Origin: Schmidtea nova
Taxonomy: Eukaryota
Assembly: GCA_044892505.1 (NCBI GenBank)
Contig: CM097882.1
Coordinates: forward strand, 465,620,001-465,684,000
Length of the DNA: 64,000 bases
Reading direction: 5' to 3'
The position numbers were made by a program, and so were the translations under genes. Shown in pieces: positions 42,723-60,981 of this stretch (its first letter is position 1; each line of letters opens with the position of its first letter). The notes beneath the pieces were generated by a model. It worked only from the letters and a program-made list of their open reading frames with translations. It was not told where the DNA came from and made no database searches.

Positions 42723-43855
42723 ATGGAACAGCTACAATGGGCCAGGGAAACTTGCGGCAGTTACCTAAAGATGATGAAAAATCATGCCGGCCAAAGAAAA
42801 TTCCGGATGACCAACAACTTACAAATCCCAAATTACCTACGGTTGAATGATAGAAAATGAAAGTTCAATTATTCAACATCAACAGAATATCAAAATTCCA
42901 AATAACAAATGAATTAAAACTATCAAAAAAGGAAGAATACCCTATCCATGTAATCAGGGGTACGGTAGAAAAGCTAGATGAAAATGGACAAATATAGTGG
43001 GAGATCAAAAAACATTCTTCAAGCAAAATTAAGGATCCAGCAATTGGGAAAATATTACGAGTAGCAAACGAGGATGCCACAATTGTAGTGGAAACTAGAA
43101 TAAAAAACGAAATTGATGACGTACCCAGCAAGGTCCAATGTAGAAAGAAAATCATGAACTCTTAAAAATAACAAAGGAAATGTTGAAGAGAAAATTATCG
43201 TTTATTCGGAAGGAAATGGACATAGAAAAAATTCGCAGTAGGTTATTGTTCATTGATGTCGAAAATGGGAGCACTGATACATGAAAGATCATCCCCTTGG
43301 CGGTGGCCATTATGATCTATCATGGGGAAATTGTGAAAAATGTCTTCTTGACTCCTAGATGAAGACTCAAACATTTTAACTCAAACATCCATGGGATAAC
43401 GGAGGTGGCCAGCCGAAACGAAAATGACAAGTATATAGAAATGAAGGAGATTTAAAAACTGGCAATCGAAAAAATAATAGAAGGAGACGATTTACATGCA
43501 GAATTGCAATTCTTAGCAATATGGTTCAACCATCTTTTTGGCATTCAGGATCTAGCCACAGCTCAAGTTTTGCAATTGAAAGGAGTCATAAAAAGAGAAG
43601 TAACCATCAATGGGCAATGGTTCAAATTATCAATAGTATGCGACATAAAAATGCGAAAAGGAAAACATTCCGCATTGGAAGATACGGAATCAATTCGGAG
43701 AATTTACTTGGCTTTAGCAAGTCAATGGCAGGATGATGTGGAAAATGAGGAGACAGCCAGCAAAAGAAAATGTTCATTAGAAGATTACAGGAAGAGAAAA
43801 GCTCCAACAACCAGTGAGTTTATGAATGAACCAAAAGATAAAAGGAAATCTCTGT
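42723..43855 (+). pseudogene. Accessory ORF with DEDDh exonuclease domain (decayed)
   Basis: Frame from 43201: LLFIDVE (ExoI), VFLTPR*..HGIT, IIEGDDLHAEL, GIQDLA, GKHSALEDTESIRRIY (ExoIII); N-terminus NNLQIPNY resembles NQICIPND in ORF 53854-55953. Confidence 0.8.
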
Positions 43856-46742
43856 GCCGTTCGTCTGCGGATAATATGCAGTCGAACGCAGTCGTTTGAT
43901 GCCAAGCTGTTCGGATAAAGAGGTAAAAAGCTGTGATTCAAATTGCGCTCCTCTGTCGCTAATAATTTGTCTGGGAATGCCATATCGTGAAACCCATTCT
44001 GAAATGAAAGATTCAGCGACAATATTTGCTGAGACAGAACGTAGAGGAACAGCTTTACACCATCTTGTCTTCCTGTCTATAATTGTTAAAAGATACGAAA
44101 AACCATTGTTTGACCGACAAGATCAACGTGAACGGCATCAAATTAATTGCCTGTTGGAAAGTGCATGTGCGGTGGTTTAACGTGTCGAGTAATTTTGTCT
44201 GATTGGCATTTCAAACACTGACTATCTCGTCTCATAAAGGGCCAAACGACTTGGTTTCTTAGCAGCTGATAAGTGGCGGTCGAGCCAGGGTGACCTAAGT
44301 CGTGAACTGCACGGAATGCCTGTTTTCGAAGCTCGAATCCAAGAATAGGTCTAAGAGTTCCCGAAAGTGAAGAGTCTAAATCAATGCGGTCTACGTTTGA
44401 TTTATGGGGTTGAAAATATTGTAGATCAGCTTCGGTTGGTTTATTCTCGCAGAGTGGAACTAGTAAACAGGGGTTCCAAGGAGATAGCCTTGGCACTACG
44501 TTAGAGAAAATCAGCTAAAATGTTCTCTTTACCCGCTATGTGTCTGATGTCACTGGTGAACTCGGTAATGAAAGAAATTTGACGTAACTGCCTGGGAGAG
44601 TTATCCTTCATAGTTGTTAAATGAACCAACGGCTTGTGATCAGTGTAAACTGTAGTATATCTACCTCCGAGCAAATTTTTGAAATGTTTAATCGACAGAA
44701 ATATGGCTAAAAGTTCCCGAATGAACGCGGAATATTTGGTTTGAGTTTCGGTTAACTTCTTAGAAAAGAATTCACGAGGTCGAACTATACCATCTTGCAC
44801 CTGTGTTAACACAGCGCTTACTGCGACGTCGGACGCATCCGTGGTTAGACTGAAAGGCAGAGAATACTTTGGGTAAGCCAAAGTCTGAATTGATTCAAGT
44901 GCTTTTTTAGCTTCGATTTCTCTGTCCATTTTATAATATATCGCTTTGATCCCGAACTGTGCTAAGTCAAAGGAGCCAGAATATCAGATATCCTAGGTTT
45001 GAACCTGTGGCAATAATTGACTACGCCTAAAAAGCTGTGAAGCTGTGTGACAGTTTCCAGTTTAGAAAAATTTCTGATGGAATTTAAACGTTCAGTTTGT
45101 GGAGCTATTCCATCGGCGGATAAAGTGTGTCCCAGAAATTTTACACTTGATTGAAAGAATTGACATTTGGAATGATTTATCTTGAGTTGATGTTGCTCTA
45201 AGATTTTAACGAGTTTAGATAGATTCTGTTTATGTGTTTCGGCATCAGGCGATGCGACTAGGATGTCGTTGACGTAGGCTACTACATAATCTAGCCCGGA
45301 TAATATGTGATCGATATGTCGCTGGAATGTTTGTGCAGCGTTCCGTAAACCAAAAGGCATTCGCAGGAATTTGAAGAGACCTGTAGCAGTGATGACAGCT
45401 GTTTTTTGCATATCAGATGGAGCGACAGGAATTTGGTGGTATGCCTTCGTCAGATCGATCTTAGAAAATATTTTGTTACCTGTGAATCTGGCTAACGAAT
45501 CCTTTATAAGAGGCATTGAATATGAGTCGTGCTGTGTGACGGTATTTAAACGACGGTAGTCGCCACATATCCCGAAAGAAGAGTCTTTCTTAGGGACGAA
45601 ATGGATCGGAGAGGCCCAAGGTGAAGAAGATCTTTGGATCACTCCTGCTTGTAACAAATTATCATATTCTGTCTTCAGAAATGTCAAGTTTGCTCCGGAT
45701 ATCGGGCACACTCTCTCTATCTGAGTGGCGGTGAATTCAGAGTAAGGATTTGATGATAGAACCTTTGGTCTAAAGATCTTGTTGTATGAGTGAAGTTATC
45801 ATCGAAAATTCGATTAATGTTGAGTTTGTTAACAAAGTTCGTGAATAGATCGATAGAGAATGTATTGCATTCAGCAGTTTGATTAGAAGCGTCATTTAAA
45901 GACGTGGAATTAATATTGGGATCGATGACGGACAGTGAGCGTTTGTTGCAATCGATGATGATGTTAAAATTTTCAAAAAAGTCGATGCTCAGATCGATTC
46001 CCATTTCTGTAATTACACCCGATCTGACAAATGTGTGCGGAAACTCCTAACCTCTGATGATAATAACATATCCATGGAGTTTTATTACGTGTGTGGTCAC
46101 GCGACTGTGATCTCGGTCGCCTTCGGTCCGTTGATGTAGATCTTGCCTCAAGCTTCTGAACTTTTCTAGTGAGATTTTTGATTGCCGATATAAGAGGATT
46201 AAAAGAATGATCCGTAGAATTTTTAGTTTTCGTGGGTGTTGTTACTGAAATTTGGTTGCAGAAACCTGTATTTGGTTCTCGAGAAACCTCGGCTATTTTA
46301 TCAGCCATATTGGCGATATCGGCGAGTGAAGTCGAGTTGGAAACTGCTAAGATGGCTTGTGTTTGTTGAGGCAAGTCAGAAAGAAAAAAGCGACAAAGAA
46401 TAGCGTCATCTTGAGTGATGCCTTGCTGTAGCGATTCGAGGTTGTCTATGGCTTGCTTCAGGAATTCGGATGGTCGTTAGGAACTTAGGTGTTGAGTCTT
46501 GAAATATTTACAAAATATTTCTGCTTTTAGTTCCCTGAAGTTATTGATTATGGCATTTTTGAGGGAAGTAAAAGGATCAACTTCGGCAAAAAGGTTTGGT
46601 AAGAGATGCGCGAGTTAAGAAAGGAGTTCGATGGGGAGAAACGAGACAAGTTGGTCGAACTTTTGCTGTGAAGTCGCGATGTTTCTGGCGTGGAAGGATC
46701 GTTCAAAAATAAATAACCATGCGTTCGGTGATTCGTTTACAT

Positions 46743-47171
46743 CTAAAAAAATGGCTTGATGTTTAGGGTTGTAAAGATGTTGATACTCGTACTGTCTGCC
46801 GATGAAGTGAAAATGTGAGGATTTGGGGAATCAGGTGATAGGGGTGATAAGGTGGTGATGAGATCACTCTCATTCATGCCTCCACGTAATCTTAATGTCA
46901 CGTGTACAACTACTCCCGCCGGTAATACCTTGGCTAATGGTCCCTCATCGTTGGCTACGCTAAAACCTATGTGTGAGCAATAGAAGGTGTTTAATTTCAA
47001 GTGCAAAATGGAGCAAATGAAGCATTCTAAATCGTGCAAGGTTAGAGAAAGTGGAAACGTGCAAAATAAGTTGCGTGAGAAGTCTTGCATTAGTATAGTA
47101 GCCTTGGCGAGGACAGGAAAATAACGAGGCTCTTTCAGTAACACAGAAGGAGGTGGTGAAAGGACACGCAA
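46743..47171 (-). CDS. Ubiquitin-like domain ending LRLRGG fused to gag N-terminus
   Basis: About 74-aa Ub-length segment ending VVVHVTLRLRGG, then MNESDL...IKPFF; one extra T in the T7 run restores PFFLDVNESPNAW of gag. Confidence 0.8.
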   Translation of the reverse strand: MRVLSPPPSVLLKEPRYFPVLAKATILMQDFSRNLFCTFPLSLTLHDLECFICSILHLKLNTFYCSHIGFSVANDEGPLAKVLPAGVVVHVTLRLRGGMNESDLITTLSPLSPDSPNPHIFTSSADSTSINIFTTLNIKPFF

Positions 47172-47254
47172 AAGGAGGGGGAAATGTGGTGATAATTATT
47201 TTTTTAAAAATATAAATATAGAATTTTTTTAATATAAATAGATAATATAAATCA

Positions 47255-47273
47255 GATCCTGCTACTGACACCA
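47255..47273 (-). promoter_or_regulatory. Putative primer binding site (tRNA-Leu-like)
   Basis: TGGTGTCAGTAGCAGGATC one base after ...ACCACA; resembles the common TGGTGTCAGAAGTGGGAT PBS. Confidence 0.65.
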
Positions 47274-47274
47274 T

Positions 47275-47447
47275 TGTGGTATTTGCGTGGTTCGCCTCCA
47301 TTGCTAATTTTGTTTTTGTTATACGTCAATGCATTTGTTTGCCCCCGCAGGAAACAGGCATCAAGATTTCGAATTGCCGTCATAGCTTGTGGGTGAATTG
47401 CAAACAGCATTAAAGCCGTATTCTTTTTGTTAAACGTAATTGTAACA
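47275..47447 (-). repeat. Putative 5' LTR
   Basis: TGTTACA...ATACCACA bracket upstream of the PBS; no second LTR in window to confirm. Confidence 0.4.
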
Positions 47448-47496
47448 TTTACGTTAACCATCATGTTATTGTTTGCATTGATCCTTTCCTCGTTAT

Positions 47497-47707
47497 TTCG
47501 ACCGTGCATCATTAGAGAGTATATTAATCGCCTAACAATTGGACATTGTGCTTGTCTAAATCGTTTTGTTTGATAACGACCAGCAGACTGGGGAATTATT
47601 TTTGCATATTTTCCACTATAATTAATGCAATCTGCCATTGACAGATCGACAGCGCGAACATCATCAGTGCTCCATTTAATGAAAAGTTTAAAGTCAGGCA
47701 TATTCAC
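47497..47707 (-). pseudogene. RPS5: 40S ribosomal protein S5 (uS7) N-terminal fragment
   Basis: [47 protein letters not shown]; diverges after GRNN; substitutions at conserved positions. Confidence 0.92.
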
Positions 47708-47924
47708 AGTTTAACACAGAACACAAAATTATTTATATAAATAAATTCAACAATGCAAAAGCTATATTTTAAAATACAACAAAATTAAAACAAGCGTTTT
47801 TTATCTTTTCAGTTTTTTATACAATTTCTTTTTTATATAATAAAATATATATTCAATATACTCTTAATATATATTTAATTTATATTTAATATAAATATTA
47901 TATTTATTTATATATTAATTATAT

Positions 47925-49615
47925 CACCACAATGTCCTCCCAATGCTCCATCGTGGTATTGTAATAATAACGACTCTCTATACTTTTTTGGCACTAGTAT
48001 TACATTATATCTCGTTTCCACGTATTTAATTAAACCTTCCTCCAAGATAAATTTATCTTTATGTTTCTCCTAATATTTTTGAATCTCGCTTGGTATGGCT
48101 TTTGCTTCGTTGGCTTGTCTGATCATGTTGATCTCGTCATCACTTTTCTGCGCCTCTACCAAGTCAGTCAACGTATTTGCTTCTCTCGTTAACATAAAAA
48201 TTGTTCCTTCTAATCTTTCTTCCTTTACGTCATCTGCTTCCGGTTCTTGTTCCATGCGTGATAGATCGTCTGCGGTACCATTGGCTTTTCCTTTACGATG
48301 TACAATCTCAATATTATATGGCTGTAATATCAATGCCCATCTTAATTATTTCGATGCTTCATCTCTATGTTTTAACAACCATTGCAGTGGTCTATGATCG
48401 GTATAGAAAATTACCTTTATGCCCTATAGGTAATGGCTAAACTTCTCTACTACAAATAAAAGTGCTTCTAGTTCTATCACCGTATAACTTTTTTCGTGTG
48501 GCTTTAATCCACGACTAGCGTATGCTACCGCGTACTCATTGCCAATTTCATCTTTCTGTCTTAATACTGCACCTATACCTCTTGCACATGCATTAGTCAT
48601 TACCATAAATTGCCTTTTAAAATCTGGAAACCGTAAAATTGGTGGTTTACATAATGCCTCTTTCAGCTTATCAAACGCTTGCTGCTGATCCTCTCCCCAT
48701 AAAAAATTTAACTCCTTTCTTTTCTACCGTAGTTAAAGTAAAAGCGATCGCAGAAAAATTTCAAATAAATTTACTATAATATCCCGTAAACCCTAAAAAT
48801 CTCTAAATTTGTTTCTCATTCACTGGTTGTTGGAAATTCTTTACTTTATCCGTGTTAGCCGGATCTGGTCTTACGCAATCGTGTGATATTACATGCCCTA
48901 CGCAAATCACTTCCGACTCTGCCAACTTGCATTTGCTTTATTTTACTTTTAAATTTGCCATGATTAATCTTTTAAAAATATCCTCAAAATGTTCTTAGTG
49001 CTTATCTAAATCTTCCGAGAAGATGATAATGTCGTCTATATACACCATTGCATGATGTGCATCCATCAGCATGATATTCATAGCCCTCTGAAAAGTTGGA
49101 AGTGTTCCTTTTAGTCCAAACGGCATCACTACATATTCGAAATGGTCACTACTTGTTGAAAATCCAGTCATCGAAATTGAGTCTTCGCTCATGTTTATTT
49201 GATAAAACCCCTTCTGTGCATCCATCACAGTAAACAATTTTTCATTTTATTGTATATTTAATCTAACAAAGGTAGCGGGTGATTATGACTTACAGTCTAC
49301 TCATTTAATTTCCTATAGTTGTTACATGACCTAACTGAATCATCTCTCTTAGCTTCAACCACCAAAGGTGAGGAATATGGAGATTTACTTGGACTGATTA
49401 TATTATACTTTTGCATTAATTTAATTTGTTTATCTACGAACCCTTGTATACTTTTAGGTATTCTATATGGGCGAATCTTTATTGGTTTAATTTCTGTTAA
49501 TTTAATCTCATGTTCTAAGCTATTAACTTGTCCTAGGTCATATTCGTGTTTTGCAAAAACTTAGTCATATTTTCGTAACAATTGATTAACCCTAATATTC
49601 TCTTTTCTAGTTAAA
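47925..49615 (-). pseudogene. pol: Gypsy pol fragment (RT, RH, start of IN), related to the env-class elements
   Basis: VFAKHEYDLG, PIKIRPY, MPFGLKGTLPTFQR, YIDDIII, MTNACARG, HRKGKANG, YHDGALGGH; many disablements. Confidence 0.85.
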
Positions 49616-53853: not shown

Positions 53854-55953
53854 TTAAATATCAAATGGATGTTGATATCCTGGTTGGTGCTTGGATTGAT
53901 TGTGCACTGGGTACTGATTGATATTGGGTTCTGTTTCTTTTTTAATATTGGTTGCATCGACAGGCTCTGCATAAATATTCACTCTGTATTTGTTGCCCCC
54001 CACACTATAATTTTCTGATAGGAGGAATGTATTGATGGGCTTACCTTCATCATCCAACATTCCTCCCCGGGCCGTCAAAGTAATGTCCTCATTTCCTTTG
54101 TCACACAATATTAAATCAATTCTTTTCTCTTTTATTTGAATTGTTGTTTTTCGAAATCCATTTTTTATCGCAAGGTTTATCGTCTCCTCGTGCTCAATTT
54201 GTCTTCCAAAATGAGTGCAGAGATCTTTTTCTGAGACATACTTTTTGTCTTTGTCTATTATGAAGTCTGATTCTTCTGGTTCTGTCCAGTCGGCTAACAT
54301 TTCAACTTTTGGTTCTGGTCCGATATCCTCTTCCATTATGTTGTATTTACTACTTGTTGATGGTTCTTCACTATCTTCTTCCATTTTGATGTCGTTACTG
54401 CTGGTTGAAGGTTCTTCTATGTTTTCATCTGCTGAGAAATATTCATCGTCTATATCACATTCGTCCATTCTTTCATATAGAATATTTTGAATTTTGGGTT
54501 CTGCTTTGATTTCCCTAGTTGGAGCGATAAGTGGTATTTCTTCTTTTATGATCATGAGTTCATCGTCGTCACTGTCCATGAGTTCTTCCATGAATGACTT
54601 TTTTGGTTTGTAATGATTGGTTTTTGTTAATTCCCCATGGGACGGCTCCATGCCTTCTCCATCTTCATATTTACTTTCTATCTCACCTTCTGCTTCGCTC
54701 TCTGTTTCGTTTTCGAATATTGCTTCTAGTTGTTCTTCTCCATTTACTTGTTTCCTTTTAAGAAGTGTTGCGGAATCCCATTTGACAACTTCTTCCCATT
54801 TATTTTCTGTGATATCGTAGATCACTTTTAATAACATTGTGGTGATCTTTGTTGAGAATGGTTCTGGTTGTCTCAATATATCATTTAACTTTTTATCTTT
54901 ATGCCAACTTTTATGGTAATTGATTACCTGGTAAGCCAAATTTGATATTTTTATTTTTGGTGGGGCCACGTTTTTTACAAAAGAACACATAAATCGATCC
55001 TGTGCCATTTCTCTTATGCCCATAATGTTGTCCAGATCTATCGTCAATAGTTTTAACTTATCTATGATGTTGAATCCAACTATGATCTTTCCATAGAGAA
55101 TGTTTCGAATTTCATTTAAGGCTTTATATTCGTCTTCATTTCCAATTATGTTTTCTTTTGTAGCTTTAGTTTTTTCCGTGTAGAATTTTTCTACTTTCGT
55201 TCTTGGGGTGATGAATTTGTTATACAGAATTGCTCCTTTTCTGCTTCTGATACAAATTTCCACTGGTCTGAGATTTTTGTTTATATCTTGAATTACTTTT
55301 ATATCCACCATTACAGTTAATGAATGCCTTTCTTCTGTCGTTAACTCTTGATTCGTGAATGATATCTTCTGATTGATCATATCTTCATTTATTTGTAGGA
55401 TTGAATGTATTGGGTTTAATTTTATGAACGGATTTGGGATTGTCGGGATATATAGCACTTCGATTGCTATCACACATGGTAGGTTGTTCATCTGCACTGT
55501 CAACTCATTGAAATCGTTTGACATGCTTCTGTCTTTTCTTATTAACTTGATAACTGCTGAACAGTTGCTTGTGACAATTAACGGGATTTTATTTTGACAT
55601 ATTGCAACTTCTGTTTTTGTCATGTGGAATATTAGTCTGTGAGGGATTCTCTGGTTTTTTGCAACTTCTTTGTCGACGTTTTGGTATTTGTCGAAGGTTC
55701 CAATAAGCTCCCTGAGTTTCACTCTTCGGGCCTCATTGAATTTTATCAGATGCATTTCCCGTTCTTCTATTTCGACTTTCATGTCGTTTGGGATACATAT
55801 TTGATTTGGGAAACTGCGAATTGTAATTGGGGTTCCATCCGTACATATCTTGTTCTGTAGATTTTTGTAAAAACTCATGTTTAGTTTGTTTATAAAACAA
55901 GTATATTTCTGGTAGGTTCTTGGTTGATTGAAATGAGGTTGATTTTGATTCAT
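53854..55953 (-). CDS. 699-aa accessory protein with REX4/ISG20-like (DEDDh-fold) pseudo-exonuclease and acidic region
   Basis: Residues about 212-385: VMVDIK..RPVEICIRSRKGAILYNKFITPRTKVEKFYTEKT..IRNILYGKIIVGFNIIDKLKLL..IREMA; catalytic residues mostly lost. Confidence 0.75.
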   Translation of the reverse strand: MNQNQPHFNQPRTYQKYTCFINKLNMSFYKNLQNKICTDGTPITIRSFPNQICIPNDMKVEIEEREMHLIKFNEARRVKLRELIGTFDKYQNVDKEVAKNQRIPHRLIFHMTKTEVAICQNKIPLIVTSNCSAVIKLIRKDRSMSNDFNELTVQMNNLPCVIAIEVLYIPTIPNPFIKLNPIHSILQINEDMINQKISFTNQELTTEERHSLTVMVDIKVIQDINKNLRPVEICIRSRKGAILYNKFITPRTKVEKFYTEKTKATKENIIGNEDEYKALNEIRNILYGKIIVGFNIIDKLKLLTIDLDNIMGIREMAQDRFMCSFVKNVAPPKIKISNLAYQVINYHKSWHKDKKLNDILRQPEPFSTKITTMLLKVIYDITENKWEEVVKWDSATLLKRKQVNGEEQLEAIFENETESEAEGEIESKYEDGEGMEPSHGELTKTNHYKPKKSFMEELMDSDDDELMIIKEEIPLIAPTREIKAEPKIQNILYERMDECDIDDEYFSADENIEEPSTSSNDIKMEEDSEEPSTSSKYNIMEEDIGPEPKVEMLADWTEPEESDFIIDKDKKYVSEKDLCTHFGRQIEHEETINLAIKNGFRKTTIQIKEKRIDLILCDKGNEDITLTARGGMLDDEGKPINTFLLSENYSVGGNKYRVNIYAEPVDATNIKKETEPNINQYPVHNQSKHQPGYQHPFDI

Positions 55954-56415
55954 CTTTGTTTTTGATTGATATCGAATTGATTTCTTGAGATATTGATTTG
56001 AGAGATGATTAATAGGGTTTTGACAGTTTAACAGAGATATAATTGAATATATTGAGATATATGGGTAATTGTCGTAACGATTCGATTGGTTTATAGAATT
56101 GACGAGATTGATTGGGTATTTTGTATGGAGATGATTGGTAGGGTTTTCTGATTGTTTGTTGTGATAGTTTAAAAAGAGATGATTGTATTTATTGAGATTT
56201 TTGAATGGTTGTCACAATGATTTGATTGATGTGTAGAATTCACGAGATTGATTGGGTTTTCGGAGTTTGTTGGAACTTGCTTTGTTTTGCTCGTGTAATC
56301 TTTTCTAAAAATAAAGGATAAAGTTTTTTGTTTAAGACGTATTGTCGGTTTAACCTTATACGCTATATAAATACGAATATATATGATTTTAATTATTATT
56401 ACTGACAAAAACTTA

Positions 56416-59400
56416 TTATACCAATGTGGATTTTGTATATTCACCTGGTATATATTTGCCCAAATGGAAATGCCCTGGTACATTTCTGACCAGTCGGCTC
56501 CGATACCGCTGCCTTTTCCATTTGTACTTTTTGTAAATTTGTACGCTAGTTATTAAAGCTAAAACTGCTAATGCTATTATTGATGTTGTGATGACATAAT
56601 AAGGCCAATGTGGCTTTTTATCCTCTTTACGAAATGCTTGTAGTTCCTCTAAGTTATGTATCACTATTGGTCTTCCTTGCCTTATTTTGATAGGTTCTTG
56701 TTTTTGTTTTTTGGCATTGTATTGTTTTTGGAATTTGGCTATTCCAGTGCTTGTTGGTATTTCGTTTGTAAGTGGTGTGGTATTTAGTATATTATCTGAT
56801 GTCGTTGTTGTGCTTTTTATTCTATCGAGTGTTTTTGTTATGTTATGGTTTTTTGTTATATTCTTGGGTAATTGTTCTGTTTTTATTTTTTTGCATCTCC
56901 ATGTTGTTGTATCTGTGTTTCTCTGTATGCAGATTTTGTATATTGTATTAGGTGTTAGTTTTGTGAAATTAATATAGTTTCCTCTTTCGATTTCGTTGGT
57001 TATTCTGTCGTCTTTTCCTTTTATCATCTTTGGGTTTTTCCCATTCGTTGTTTGCATGTATAAATCAATTACTCCTCTATTTATGATAAATGCTCTAACT
57101 TCGTTTGTTGATATTTTTATTAATACTTTGTCAAATTCTATTGTTTCGGTTGAGCCAACAAATGTTATGATTGTTAAGAAGATAGCCGATATTATTAGTT
57201 TGTTATGAGATCTTAGATTATACTTGTGGGGTTTATCTATCGTGACCTCGGCTTCCGCCAACTTGCATCTGTTGACATGTACTACTATTGGATCCTCGTT
57301 TTTATGCTTTTGTAAGTGTAAATTCTCATTTATTACTTTTACTACCTCATATGGACCTTTATATGGTCTTGCTAGTTTTGTTGTCTTTCCCTTTCCTACT
57401 TGTGGTGACATAAGTCTAACCTTATCACCTACTTTAAAGTTGTGTGGTTTACTATTTTTGTCGTAGTCGGCTTTGTACTGTTCTTGTCTATATTTGACTT
57501 TTAGATTGGCTACTTTATACACTTCTTGCAGTTTTTCCTGCATTAGTGTGACATAATCTGGTGCATCTAAATATTGTGATACTCGAGGTTCAAATATTGT
57601 ATCTATTGGTGTTGCTGGTTCTCTTAAAAACATTAAATAATACGGTGAATACCCTGTTGTTTCGTTTGGAGTGATATTATGAATGTATGTGCATTGACTT
57701 ATGTATTCGTCCCAATCATTTTGATTTTTTCCTACAAAAACAGCTAGTCTGCTTAGTAATGTCCCATTAAATCTTTCTACTAGTCCATCAGTTTGAGGGT
57801 GATACGCTGTTGTGTTGATCTTTTGCATGTTAAAAATATTAGCTACTCGTTTTATTAATTCACTAGTAAAATTTGTTCCTTTATCTGTTAATAATCTTTT
57901 GGGTGTGCCTATCTTGAAAATAATTTTTTCTATAAGCAATTTAGCAACTGTTTCTGCTGTTTCGTCTTTTGTTGGAAATGCTTCTGCCCATCTAGTAAAA
58001 TAATCACTAAATACTAGTATATGTTTATTCCCATTAATTGTAGTAGGTAATTTACATAGAAAATCCATTGCACATAGTTCCATTGGTGATGTCGTTGCTG
58101 GAATGGGATGTAACGGCGCTTTTGTTTTTGTACCTGTATTTTTTCTTGTTGCACATATTGTACACGCGTTACACCATCTCTTAACATCTTTCTTTAATTC
58201 TTCCCAGTAATATTTTTGTAATAATCTACTTGCTGTTTTTCTAGATGATAAGTGACCTCCTAATGCTCCATCGTGATATTGTAGTAGGAGTATTTGTCTT
58301 AATTTCTGAGGTACTACTATTAGTTGCTTACCATTGAAATCTTCTATTACTACTAATTTCTTTGATATTTTATACTTTGAATTGTTTTCTTTTCTGATTT
58401 CATTTTTTATTTTACTGATCTCTGGGTCTTTCATCTGTTCCTCATATATATCGATTGGTTTTTCTGCTACTAGTGCAAATATTTCAAGTGCTCCTAATTC
58501 TGGTATTCTTGATAGTGCATCTGCGTTTTTATTTATTCTACCTGGTTTATATATAATTTTTAGGTGCATGTCTTGTATTTTCATTGCCCATTTAAGTAAT
58601 CTACTTGATGTATCTTTATGTTTCCATAAGCCTTCTAATGGTTTATGGTCAGTTCTTATTATCACTTCAGTCCCATATATGTATGGTTTGAATTGTTTTA
58701 GGGCGAATACTATTGCGTAACATTCTTTTTCTATTGTTGAATACCTCAGCTGTGCTCCTTTTAATGTTTTACTGGCATATGCTATTACGTAATCTTTCCC
58801 TTTTTCTTCTTCTTGGCCTAAGACTGCTCCTACGGCTTTCCCGCTGGCATCCGTCATTACTATAAACTGTTTTTCAAAATCTGGGTATCTTAACACTGGT
58901 GCTGTTATCAATCTTTCTTTTAGTTTATTGAATGCTTCTTGATGTTCCTTTGTCCACTTCTTTTGTATCTTGTTAACTTTGCTGTTCATTTCTTGTACTA
59001 TTAACACATTTTTGCATTCTCCTTTTGTTCTAATTCCCTTTGTCAGTTCTATTATCGGTGATGCTATCTTTGCATAATCTTGTATGAATTTACGATAGTA
59101 CCCTGTTAGACCTAAAAACCCTTGTACTTGTTGTACTGTTTTTGGTATTGGGAATTTCTTTACAACTTCTATTTTTTCTGGATTTGGTTTTATCCCTTCT
59201 ACTGTAACTATATGCCCTAGAAATAACGCCGAAGGTTCTGCCCATTTACACTTAGTTGGTTTAATTTTAATTTTTGCTTTTCTTAGTCTCTCGAGTACAT
59301 TTGTTATATCTTTTAAGTGTTCCTCAAATGTTTTTGATGATATTAGTATATCATCCATGTAAACTGCGCAATGTTGTACATTTACTAATATTGTGTTCAT

Positions 59401-60705
59401 TAGGCGCTGAAATGTAGCTGGTGCGTTAGTTAACCCGAAAGGTAATCGTGTATACTCATATAAACCATCCTCGATAACAAATGCTGTTTTTTCCGCATCC
59501 CCTTCCTCCATTTGAATTTGCATATATCCCTTATTTGCGTCAATAACTGAAAAATACTTAGCATCCCTAAGTTTATCGTATTGCTCTTGTGCTTTTGGGA
59601 ATGGGTATGAATCTTTTACTGTTACATCATTTAATTTACGATAGTCAATGCACATTCTTATTTCTCCGTCTTTCTTTTTAACGGGTACAATGGGTGATGC
59701 CCACTGTGAAAAACTCTGTTTTATTACACCTGCATCGTTTAGTTCTTTGATTTGTCGTTTTATTTCCTCTCTTAACTTGTATGGTACGCTGTATGGTCTT
59801 TGTTTTATTGGTCTCGCATTACCTGTATCTATTACATGTTTGATTATATCGGTATCCCCTAGATCAAATTCGTGTTTTGCAAAAACATCACTATATTTAT
59901 CTATCAATGTTTGTAGTTGTGCTTGTTGTGTTATTGTTAAGTATTCATTATTAATTTTCACTTTGTCATATGATTTTATATTATTTATCTTACTAGGTTC
60001 GACTACTCCCTTGCCGTTATTATTCATCACGCTTATCTCACTGACTTCGTACGTTTTTTCTAATTCACCTTTGAATAATTTTCCCAATTTCGTACCTTTG
60101 TGTATTTTAACATTACTTTTTTCATAATTTGCTATTCTCAATGGTATTATTCCCTTTCTCGGAATTACGCATTCATTGATTAGCATTATATTCTGATTTT
60201 GTATAATTGCCGTTTCTGGCTCAAAAATAAAAGTGTCCTCACTTTTGATGTTAACTTTTAAGGGAATTATATGATCGCATTCATATTCCAATTCAAATGC
60301 TTCTAATGCAACAACTTCTGTGAACTTGGATTTATGTTTAATTGCTTTTCTCTTTATCGTATTATCTGTTAAATCTATAATGCAATTTTCTAACTTGTTG
60401 AGTATATCGATTCCCAATATACATATGCTATTACATTCTTGCACCACTTTAAATATGTGGTTTATTACATGTTCTGGTGTTTCGACAATTAGTTCTATGT
60501 CTCCCTTTAGTGGAATACGATGTGCTGATAACGATACTACTTTATCCGTTGTGCTCATAATATTTCTTTTTTGATCATCTGTCAGTTGATCTTCTCTAAT
60601 TAAGGATGTTGCTTCTCCTGTATCTACTAATGCATTTATGATTATATTGTTTATAATTATTCTAAGTCTTGGTCTTGCTTCGTTTGCTGCATCTAATCGT
60701 TCCAT
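56416..60705 (-). CDS. pol: Pol polyprotein PR-RT-RNase H-IN plus C-terminal type I membrane protein
   Basis: ALVDTGEA, QWASPIV, CIDYRKLN, LPFGLTNAPATFQR, YMDDILI, MTDASG, HDGALGGH..CxxC, AMDF, TDKGTNF, QTDGLVER, YKGPY; last 261 aa carry two hydrophobic segments. Confidence 0.95.
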   Translation of the reverse strand: MERLDAANEARPRLRIIINNIIINALVDTGEATSLIREDQLTDDQKRNIMSTTDKVVSLSAHRIPLKGDIELIVETPEHVINHIFKVVQECNSICILGIDILNKLENCIIDLTDNTIKRKAIKHKSKFTEVVALEAFELEYECDHIIPLKVNIKSEDTFIFEPETAIIQNQNIMLINECVIPRKGIIPLRIANYEKSNVKIHKGTKLGKLFKGELEKTYEVSEISVMNNNGKGVVEPSKINNIKSYDKVKINNEYLTITQQAQLQTLIDKYSDVFAKHEFDLGDTDIIKHVIDTGNARPIKQRPYSVPYKLREEIKRQIKELNDAGVIKQSFSQWASPIVPVKKKDGEIRMCIDYRKLNDVTVKDSYPFPKAQEQYDKLRDAKYFSVIDANKGYMQIQMEEGDAEKTAFVIEDGLYEYTRLPFGLTNAPATFQRLMNTILVNVQHCAVYMDDILISSKTFEEHLKDITNVLERLRKAKIKIKPTKCKWAEPSALFLGHIVTVEGIKPNPEKIEVVKKFPIPKTVQQVQGFLGLTGYYRKFIQDYAKIASPIIELTKGIRTKGECKNVLIVQEMNSKVNKIQKKWTKEHQEAFNKLKERLITAPVLRYPDFEKQFIVMTDASGKAVGAVLGQEEEKGKDYVIAYASKTLKGAQLRYSTIEKECYAIVFALKQFKPYIYGTEVIIRTDHKPLEGLWKHKDTSSRLLKWAMKIQDMHLKIIYKPGRINKNADALSRIPELGALEIFALVAEKPIDIYEEQMKDPEISKIKNEIRKENNSKYKISKKLVVIEDFNGKQLIVVPQKLRQILLLQYHDGALGGHLSSRKTASRLLQKYYWEELKKDVKRWCNACTICATRKNTGTKTKAPLHPIPATTSPMELCAMDFLCKLPTTINGNKHILVFSDYFTRWAEAFPTKDETAETVAKLLIEKIIFKIGTPKRLLTDKGTNFTSELIKRVANIFNMQKINTTAYHPQTDGLVERFNGTLLSRLAVFVGKNQNDWDEYISQCTYIHNITPNETTGYSPYYLMFLREPATPIDTIFEPRVSQYLDAPDYVTLMQEKLQEVYKVANLKVKYRQEQYKADYDKNSKPHNFKVGDKVRLMSPQVGKGKTTKLARPYKGPYEVVKVINENLHLQKHKNEDPIVVHVNRCKLAEAEVTIDKPHKYNLRSHNKLIISAIFLTIITFVGSTETIEFDKVLIKISTNEVRAFIINRGVIDLYMQTTNGKNPKMIKGKDDRITNEIERGNYINFTKLTPNTIYKICIQRNTDTTTWRCKKIKTEQLPKNITKNHNITKTLDRIKSTTTTSDNILNTTPLTNEIPTSTGIAKFQKQYNAKKQKQEPIKIRQGRPIVIHNLEELQAFRKEDKKPHWPYYVITTSIIALAVLALITSVQIYKKYKWKRQRYRSRLVRNVPGHFHLGKYIPGEYTKSTLV

Positions 60706-60981
60706 TGTTTCGACTTCTAAGCTATAACAACCATATATCTTTTTAGGTTCACAATGACAATTCTTGTTTTCTCTAGGAATTTTGATTTCTATATTTTCTT
60801 GTAGCTCTTTTAGTTGTTCTCTTTGGTTTTCATATAGTCCTTGTTGTGGTACATTTCCTTCATGTGATATATGCGCTTTAATTATTTCCTCATCGTTTTC
60901 ATCATCTACCAGTAATTGCCTTTCTTCATTCCTTTGGACTTTTATTAAACGTATTTCCTTGTCGTGTTTCGCCGTAATAAG

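Follow-up and report, generated by a model that had tools for sequence, protein, structure and literature searches.

A ubiquitin-like domain (Ubl) ending in Gly-Gly stands directly before Gag in a lineage of Ty3/gypsy long terminal repeat (LTR) retrotransposons and is a real feature of these elements, in which a known processing trick would appear in a new setting. Judged from sequence comparison, host deubiquitinases (DUBs) probably cut after the Gly-Gly and so free Gag from the peptide translated from the LTR and leader. The window in which the domain was first noticed is the whole stretch of Schmidtea nova DNA analysed here (64,000 nt; GCA_044892505.1, contig CM097882.1, positions 465,620,001 to 465,684,000 of the forward strand), and coordinates below are those of the window.

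The window element, its copies and its sister families

The window Ubl sits in a decayed, dead copy of a Ty3/gypsy (Metaviridae) LTR retrotransposon, here called family A. Its parts are listed in the order in which the element reads.

47275..47931, minus strand: 5' LTR, 657 bp, TG...CA, with ends read in the sequence; it matches both LTRs of full copies.
47480..47701, minus strand: captured N-terminal 74 codons of 40S ribosomal protein S5 (RPS5, uS7) inside the LTR (phmmer to solved RPS5 chains, E 1.4e-25), present in 50 of 63 copies.
47256..47273, minus strand: primer-binding site, read in the sequence, overlapped by an ATG at 47274-47272; same site in the copies.
47106..47255, minus strand: leader that joins primer site and Ubl; across copies its Ubl frame is free of stops, but its amino acids are not under constraint.
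46878..47105, minus strand: Ubl, 76 codons, with the tail LRLRGG at 46895-46878, as assigned from profile tests, purifying selection and column pattern.
46749..46877, minus strand: Met after GG and a Pro/Ser/Thr-rich linker up to a T homopolymer, where the frame breaks (stop at 46745-46743).
45973..46748, minus strand: Gag core (DUF7041 type) and a C-x2-H-x9-C-type zinc knuckle, from translation, with stops and shifts in the window copy.
43856..45972, minus strand: pol remnant with RT, RNase H and integrase (Pfam RVT_1, RT_RNaseH, Integrase_H2C2 and rve in order), its 3' end truncated at ~43856 by comparison with full copies.

The window copy has the 5' LTR only, and ~450 bp near the protease are missing relative to full copies. 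Genome searches returned at least 40 DNA and at least 83 protein matches to family A, and 63 loci (the window copy and 62 others) were taken as the analysis set; the frames listed for these 63 loci included no whole gag or pol frame. Two LTR ends were present in 11 copies, with LTR pairs 92.9-98.6% alike, a 5-bp target duplication in 9 of the 11 and an element length of 6.1-7.2 kb in 10 of the 11 measured, the eleventh having a mis-called end. DUF7041 was matched in copies L090 and L089 (E 3e-10 and 4e-7). Family A is Ty3/gypsy by its paired TG...CA LTRs, short target duplication, gag followed by RT-RNase H-integrase, Gag core and knuckle, and primer site, which is presumably of the tRNA-Leu type. 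The start codon of the captured RPS5 piece was considered as the driver of the Ubl frame, an idea that found no support: only 5 of 14 measurable copies have it in frame with the ATG at the primer site. A subfamily (L073, L081, L084) has LTRs of ~870-895 bp, in which a shorter RPS5 piece is preceded by a different open frame. Elsewhere in the window, another gypsy element (53854-60981, minus strand) carries a pol of 1521 aa with a putative membrane segment at its end and, downstream, an ORF of 785 aa that presumably contains an exonuclease-like stretch; a decayed relative, at 42865-43899, flanks the truncated end of family A.

The 76-codon domain (47105-46878, minus strand) was translated within the minus-strand frame 47195-46743 and ends, exactly as the first-pass annotation had it, in LRLRGG followed directly by a Met codon (46877-46875; LRLRGG-M at 46895-46875, minus strand). 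The window contains a single match to this codon pattern and 100 shuffles contained none, and the genome-wide pattern of LRLRGG plus ATG gave 191 matches against 1 for a reversed control. The same annotation described a very diverged domain with a kept cleavage motif. The description holds for the divergence, with 16 identities to the host polyubiquitin unit over 71 aligned positions, six of them in the tail; it overstates the exact LRLRGG, since the clade keeps mostly R-L-x-G-G.

Alone, the window protein matched no Pfam family at E<=1 over the Ubl, the ubiquitin family included, and its best PDB sequence match was a weak one to ISG15 (E 0.24). The single-sequence AlphaFold model was of low confidence (pLDDT 55.8), with the order strand-strand-helix-strand-strand, and a fold search with this poor model (Z <=4.7, no ubiquitin chain) is uninformative rather than evidence against the fold. 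Language-model neighbours of the domain included ubiquitin clusters at 0.90-0.91, taken as a lead only; an Atlas search started from a relative returned only scores <0.8. Family-level comparison gave more: a tail-less profile built without two near-ubiquitin members scored host ubiquitin at 39 bits and the window domain at 21 bits, with 0 of 300 shuffles as high, and the family Ubl alignment, which includes two near-ubiquitin members, matched host ubiquitin over the whole domain (probability 97.9, E 3e-13). The window residues at ubiquitin I44, V70, K48 and K63 are S, T, F and A, and by near-invariance, Ile44 patch and Lys48/Lys63 the domain is neither ubiquitin proper nor a ubiquitin mimic. 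No host source gene for it was found among the 83 genome protein matches, all of which look like element copies as judged by identity, with some matches opened.

Thirty DUF7041 loci in the genome fell into 12 of a family with a domain ending LLKGG-type (F1), one of a family ending RLRGG (F2), and 17 without such a domain, in which Gag starts near the primer site. Families A, F1 and F2 form one RT-RNase H clade (support 100/100) at 51-56% RT identity, against 41-48% RT-RNase H identity to four Ubl-less families. Compared pairwise, their Ubls share 14-17 identities, and in each family GG lies a short way upstream of the Gag core. GG is followed by Ala in F1 and by Thr/Ser in F2, with no Met before the Gag core in either, and the F1 di-Gly is kept (G in 53 and 52 of 59). 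Without its tail the F1 domain scored only 4.5-10.8 bits, a level that as many as 8 of 300 shuffles reached; its kinship to ubiquitin thus rests mainly on position and tail, and F1 is the least clearly ubiquitin-like family. Eight weak F2-like matches either came from decayed relatives that share the RLRGG-type junction or were too fragmented to be read.

DUF7041-Gag Ty3/gypsy elements (Pfam PF23055) share with the Ubl clade the Gag core, zinc knuckle, RT-RNase H-integrase order, LTRs and 5-bp duplication, and the Ubl-less relatives in this genome also share a Gag start at or just before the primer site. They have a short N-terminus, whereas the Ubl clade adds a leader and Ubl of ~140-240 aa (up to several hundred) before Gag. 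In L177, L178, L180 and related Ubl-less loci the Gag ATG is within the LTR, a few codons upstream of the primer site, and several LTR pairs are 99-100% alike. One F1 locus (L165) has lost its Ubl by deletion and carries, ~1000 nt upstream of the Gag core (oriented), a leader stretch that we take to resemble a filamin-type Ig repeat.

Conservation of the Ubl and probable release of Gag

A profile of the three families was searched with HMMER against 1.84 billion representative proteins, giving 2154 at E<=0.001, of which the best 150 were examined. Word-index protein searches with two family A fusions had given no matches where the full HMMER search did, and scans of viral contigs gave no relatives. 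Among the best 150, hydrophobic-x-GG was present 8-75 aa before the Gag core in 31 of 35 proteins with an N-terminal extension of at least 90 aa, and upstream of the core in 8 of 115 shorter proteins (control windows, 2 of 37), counts that are biased upward because the query profile contained the tail and that come from related, not independent, sequences. From the resulting 39 motif carriers three doubtful or short proteins were dropped for the 36-protein counts; a zinc knuckle was present in 30 of 36. The Pfam ubiquitin family was matched at E<0.001 in 9 of 35 proteins scanned, two of them strongly. Leaders of P0027, P0018, P0136 and P0036 carry histone H2A, 5'-nucleotidase, RING finger and HEAT-like pieces.

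These Ubls evolve fast. Median identity among 32 of them is 20%, and the tails are mostly R-L-x-G-G. By column count, buried core positions are 77-100% hydrophobic, and R72 is kept in 69%, L73 in 84% and G47 in 59%, where L73 and GG belonged to the pattern by which the set was selected and R72 did not. The ubiquitin surface is another matter: I44 is kept in 3%, V70 in 6%, H68 in 14%, R42 in 9%, K63 in 3% and K48 in 34%.

In the reading favoured here, the ORF would begin inside the LTR and run through primer site and leader, as is seen on the DNA of open-frame relatives. The primary product would be leader peptide-Ubl-Gag and, by frameshift, probably leader-Ubl-Gag-Pol, from which a host DUB cut after Gly-Gly would produce Gag with a defined N-terminus. 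Gag maturation by host DUBs, one of the two uses offered in the first-pass annotation, has indirect support; the part that would be removed, a peptide encoded by LTR, primer site and leader, was overlooked there. A domain that, in the alignment, keeps the hydrophobic core and R-L-x-G-G tail and has lost the Ile44 patch and most chain lysines may be cleavable and yet avoid ubiquitin receptors and proteasomal targeting. The cut would also make the N-terminal part disposable, such that the leader could drift or take in host mRNA pieces with Gag unharmed. DUBs normally also read the ubiquitin surface, and its loss in these Ubls counts against cleavage by them. On the side of the tail, the accessible part of a study of DUB substrate libraries describes preferences that are narrow at P2 and broad at P3-P4 (PMC7477763), which R-L-x-G-G fits; the same source gives UCH-L3 a preference for Arg at P3, a point against the DUB reading, as Arg is at P3 in only 13 of the 39 public motif carriers. 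Arg at P5, in 26 of 39, counts in favour.

The released Ubl, or leader-Ubl, could instead be the product that matters, as a decoy, inhibitor or conjugated modifier, with the freeing of Gag secondary. Such a product would have a free GG end, its R72 and G47 are kept as above, its codons are under selection, near-true ubiquitin occurs in P0024, P0031 and 4 of 18 metagenome loci (62-76% identity), and some leaders contain RING, histone or nucleotidase pieces. It is nevertheless unlikely, given that Ile44, Val70, His68, Arg42 and most lysines are not kept, that a median identity of 20% is not what a mimic of a nearly invariant host protein would be expected to show, and that the Ubl N-terminus is fused to a variable leader. 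The ubiquitin decoy offered in the first-pass annotation has lost ground with the Ile44, Val70, Lys63 and Lys48 columns in particular.

Release of Gag by host DUBs draws further on the residue after GG (P1'), which is S/M/A/G/T/V in 30 of 36 proteins against 34% over the next 14 positions, is often followed by Asp or Asn, and is Pro in 0 of 36 against 11% nearby (p=0.014; p values at this position are optimistic, the public proteins being related). A start with S/M/A/G/T/V and then Asp/Asn is characteristic of mature, acetylated N-termini, and DUBs are blocked by a Pro that follows GG. A quick Gag tree (60 rows) placed 35 Ubl carriers, A, F1 and F2 included, and 4 short proteins in one group (SH-aLRT 98), with 4 Ubl carriers among short Gags elsewhere; its starred branches force at least four changes. 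Two near-ubiquitin carriers nest among diverged ones, and the tree suggests further Ubl gains and recapture of ubiquitin.

Alternatively, the Ubl may stay on Gag, or be removed late by the element's aspartic protease, and serve as a folding or solubility tag or a matrix-like targeting domain. The conserved hydrophobic core agrees with this, as does the fact that Ubl motifs follow the Gag tree, the nearest Gags to family A sharing its Ubl motif. Retropepsins, on the other hand, prefer hydrophobic residues at the cut, a variable leader of 60-880 aa would remain on Gag, and the conserved R-L-x-G-G and N-terminus-like P1' without Pro are left unexplained. With the Burro elements also counted in its favour, which carry Ubl modules inside polyproteins according to the accessible text on them (PMC6431247), a retained domain is still quite unlikely.

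Frame continuity, start sites and selection

Elements with open frames were found in metagenomes. A first metagenome scan gave no relatives; the scan used here gave 18 loci, of which 15 have a readable Ubl-GG-core junction, all 15 with the di-Gly, and 11 show pol at ~50% identity to family A. Nine loci have both a primer site upstream of the Ubl and the 5' end of the frame. In eight of these the first ATG of the frame is 94-324 nt upstream of the primer site, and the frame reads on across the site, all three phases being represented; L285, the exception, has a frame change. No Met occurs from GG to the core Trp in 13 of the 15 (nor is one available between GG and core in 21 of 39 public motif carriers). 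With the ORF starting upstream and no Met after GG, Gag must in these relatives be made as a fusion. The opposite pattern envisaged in the first-pass annotation, in which intact copies start gag at the downstream Met and do not keep the Ubl frame, was not what the open-frame relatives presented, as they keep the Ubl-Gag frame. Pairwise identity was 23-65% for the leader, 36-99% for the Ubl and 66-100% for Gag; the order Gag > Ubl > leader was found in 5 of 6 pairs with all three parts, and the leader was lowest in 6 of 6. Two of the contigs (L283, L286; 5.3-5.6 kb) have 99-nt terminal overlaps, which fits circular one-LTR DNA or collapsed repeats.

The window copy itself is broken: its Ubl frame stops at 46745-46743, just past the T homopolymer at 46749-46755, and beyond it the Gag core is read in a different frame. 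Short-read contigs from 3 of 4 runs cross this spot and match it exactly, with no difference and no gap; the break is therefore genomic, and an assembly error at the run was ruled out on these grounds. What the first-pass annotation said of a Ubl preceding Gag is borne out as to position in family A, the sister families and the relatives, and falls short for the window copy, whose frame is broken before the Gag core. Of the 52 family A copies that could be measured, 18 have Ubl and Gag core in one frame, a share no larger than a third, which weighs against the favoured reading, and 34 are out of frame at the run; nine open Ubl-to-core frames were found, in eight loci. Where another base interrupts the T run, 10 of 17 cases are in frame; where the run is pure, 5 of 33 are (p=0.003), a difference that fits slippage after insertion. 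For family A the in-frame Ubl-Gag state is deduced from the interrupted runs and the relatives.

Conservation of LRGG across copies, which the first-pass annotation had proposed as a check, was found for those residues and not for the full hexapeptide: of 59 readable family A copies, 31 begin it with F and 27 with L, and the following positions have R in 51, L in 55, R in 49, G in 50 and 49, and then M in 55 (n=58-59). With Met after GG kept in 55 of 59 copies, an internal start is possible in family A. A second Met, inside the Ubl at about ubiquitin position 6 by our reading of the alignment, suggests that the full domain would need an upstream start. In the leader, no majority stop occurred in any of 56 codon columns of the Ubl frame (0/56), against 4 and 1 in the other frames.

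Substitutions found in single family A copies were near neutral (omega 0.7-1.2). Among those common to at least 4 copies, omega was lowest in pol (0.09-0.22), followed by the Gag core (0.31) and the Ubl (0.43), and highest in the leader (0.86). Shared against singleton changes in the Ubl were N21:S18 against N128:S26 (p=2e-4, also 6e-4), where p=2e-4 was helped by a singleton omega of 1.5 in the same run; the Gag core gave p~1e-6, and leader and linker were not significant (leader, p=0.31-0.74). With site ratios as the reference, p for the Ubl was 0.015-0.022 when the threshold was 3 or 4 and 0.31 when it was 6; without CpG sites p was 0.03-0.55, and some wrong frames also gave p<0.05. The signal of purifying selection on family A Ubl codons is accordingly rated moderate, because the site-ratio tests are weaker and some wrong frames also fall below 0.05. 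For F1 (61 loci) the Ubl gave omega 0.29-0.36 (p 0.002 and 0.0005) and the 43 upstream codons p 0.45; the F2 test (29 copies) had too few shared changes and no power.

Selection and start sites bear on passive capture, in which an abundant ubiquitin mRNA was copied into the leader like RPS5, HSP90 and enolase, Gag would begin with the Met that follows GG and the Ubl would be a decaying leftover. These elements have captured many housekeeping mRNA pieces, family A keeps its Met after GG, and 4 short Gags lie inside the Ubl clade. Against this, the Ubl codons are under selection and the leader is not, position and tail are the same across families at only 51-56% RT identity, and the 13 of 15 metagenome relatives and 21 of 39 public proteins above have no Met available; passive capture is very unlikely, and for the clade already largely refuted. 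A dosage or timing device, in which the level of free Gag is set by slow cutting of a poor substrate or, in family A, by programmed frameshifting at the T run, is highly improbable even with 34 of 52 copies out of frame, a window break that is real DNA and a degenerate Ubl surface, as most runs that an interrupting base has stabilised are in frame, the scatter of run lengths is what post-insertion slippage would produce, and sister families and metagenome relatives have no shift at that place.

Comparison with known fusions and with BEL/Pao elements

Cleavage of Gag from a Ubl by host DUBs would have a counterpart in linear Ub/Ubl-GG fusions of the host. Ub-eS31, Ub-eL40 and FUBI-eS30 are such fusions; Ub-ribosomal protein precursors are cut after GG to expose a new N-terminus, and FUBI is a diverged Ubl that is still processed. 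They are host genes with Ub at the very N-terminus, whereas the element Ubl is internal, between translated LTR/leader and Gag, and fast-evolving. In the pestivirus BVDV, release at the ubiquitin-NS3 junction is by host proteases. Host-derived Ub or Ubl stands there in frame directly before the viral protein NS3, and the accessible text of PMC13517609 describes repeated independent inserts in cytopathic BVDV, often as mosaics. The BVDV inserts are recent and sporadic and belong to an RNA virus, whereas the retrotransposon Ubl is an old, heritable clade trait at ~20% identity before a capsid protein. Burro/GYPSM1 giant elements are likewise Ty3/gypsy with a ubiquitin-fold module in the polyprotein; they are env-bearing, of 25-30 kb, with a Ubi2/SUMO-like motif after Gag, between MATH and BCL-2, and no di-Gly cleavage is proposed in the accessible part of their description (PMC6431247), unlike the 6-7 kb elements studied here, with a di-Gly-ended Ubl before Gag.

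A literature search found no description of a Ubl before Gag in LTR retrotransposons in the texts it could reach; Repbase, GyDB and subscription journals, which may annotate such domains, lay outside its scope. The only Ub-Gag match in that search, as far as its accessible text goes, was an engineered HIV vaccine construct (PMC3914991), and a word search of the accessible text and 7 supplementary files of an eLife paper (PMC13524379) did not find 'ubiquitin' or 'Ubl'.

If release by DUBs is correct, these elements would be a natural and long-lived example of a retroelement that relies on a protease of its host to take the first step in processing Gag, DUBs would be possible host factors for them, and there would be a reason why they translate through LTR and primer site and tolerate captured host sequence. 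The dozens of natural Ubl variants that keep only core and R-L-x-G-G form a panel for asking which DUBs cut without the Ile44 surface.

The genome-wide LRLRGG-M pattern also led to BEL/Pao-type elements. Twenty loci were fetched, most with near-authentic ubiquitin; the set also included the host polyubiquitin gene and a single chance match. In four scanned frames ubiquitin lies upstream of a DUF1759 Gag, behind captured HSP90 or HSP70 pieces, and enolase, eIF3L and glutathione-reductase-like pieces lie near such loci. These elements resemble the gypsy clade in having ubiquitin in frame directly before Gag and downstream of captured host mRNA pieces; they differ in superfamily and in a near-authentic, sometimes tandem ubiquitin, and their ubiquitin is most likely an independent, younger gain. 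In one group (L114, L116, L117, L119, L123, L129) near-authentic ubiquitin before Gag is accompanied by mosaics of host pieces, and LTR pairs are ~98% alike in three. In this group the gypsy query gave no pol match and pol-type Pfam matches were fragmentary only, so its members are possibly non-autonomous.

A broader proposal, to which we give a little under an even chance, is that a whole, deeply branching Ty3/gypsy lineage hands Gag maturation to host DUBs by way of fast-evolving, receptor-blind Ubls. Such Ubls would have been gained several times (in the main clade, at least two other gypsy branches and BEL/Pao) and refreshed by recapture of host ubiquitin, and LTR and leader would serve as a translated cargo bay for host genes.

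At one place in the genome (G000:C1:590834991-590968116) five ubiquitin-bearing BEL/Pao-type matches lie ~33 kb apart, a spacing that suggests a large tandem duplication.
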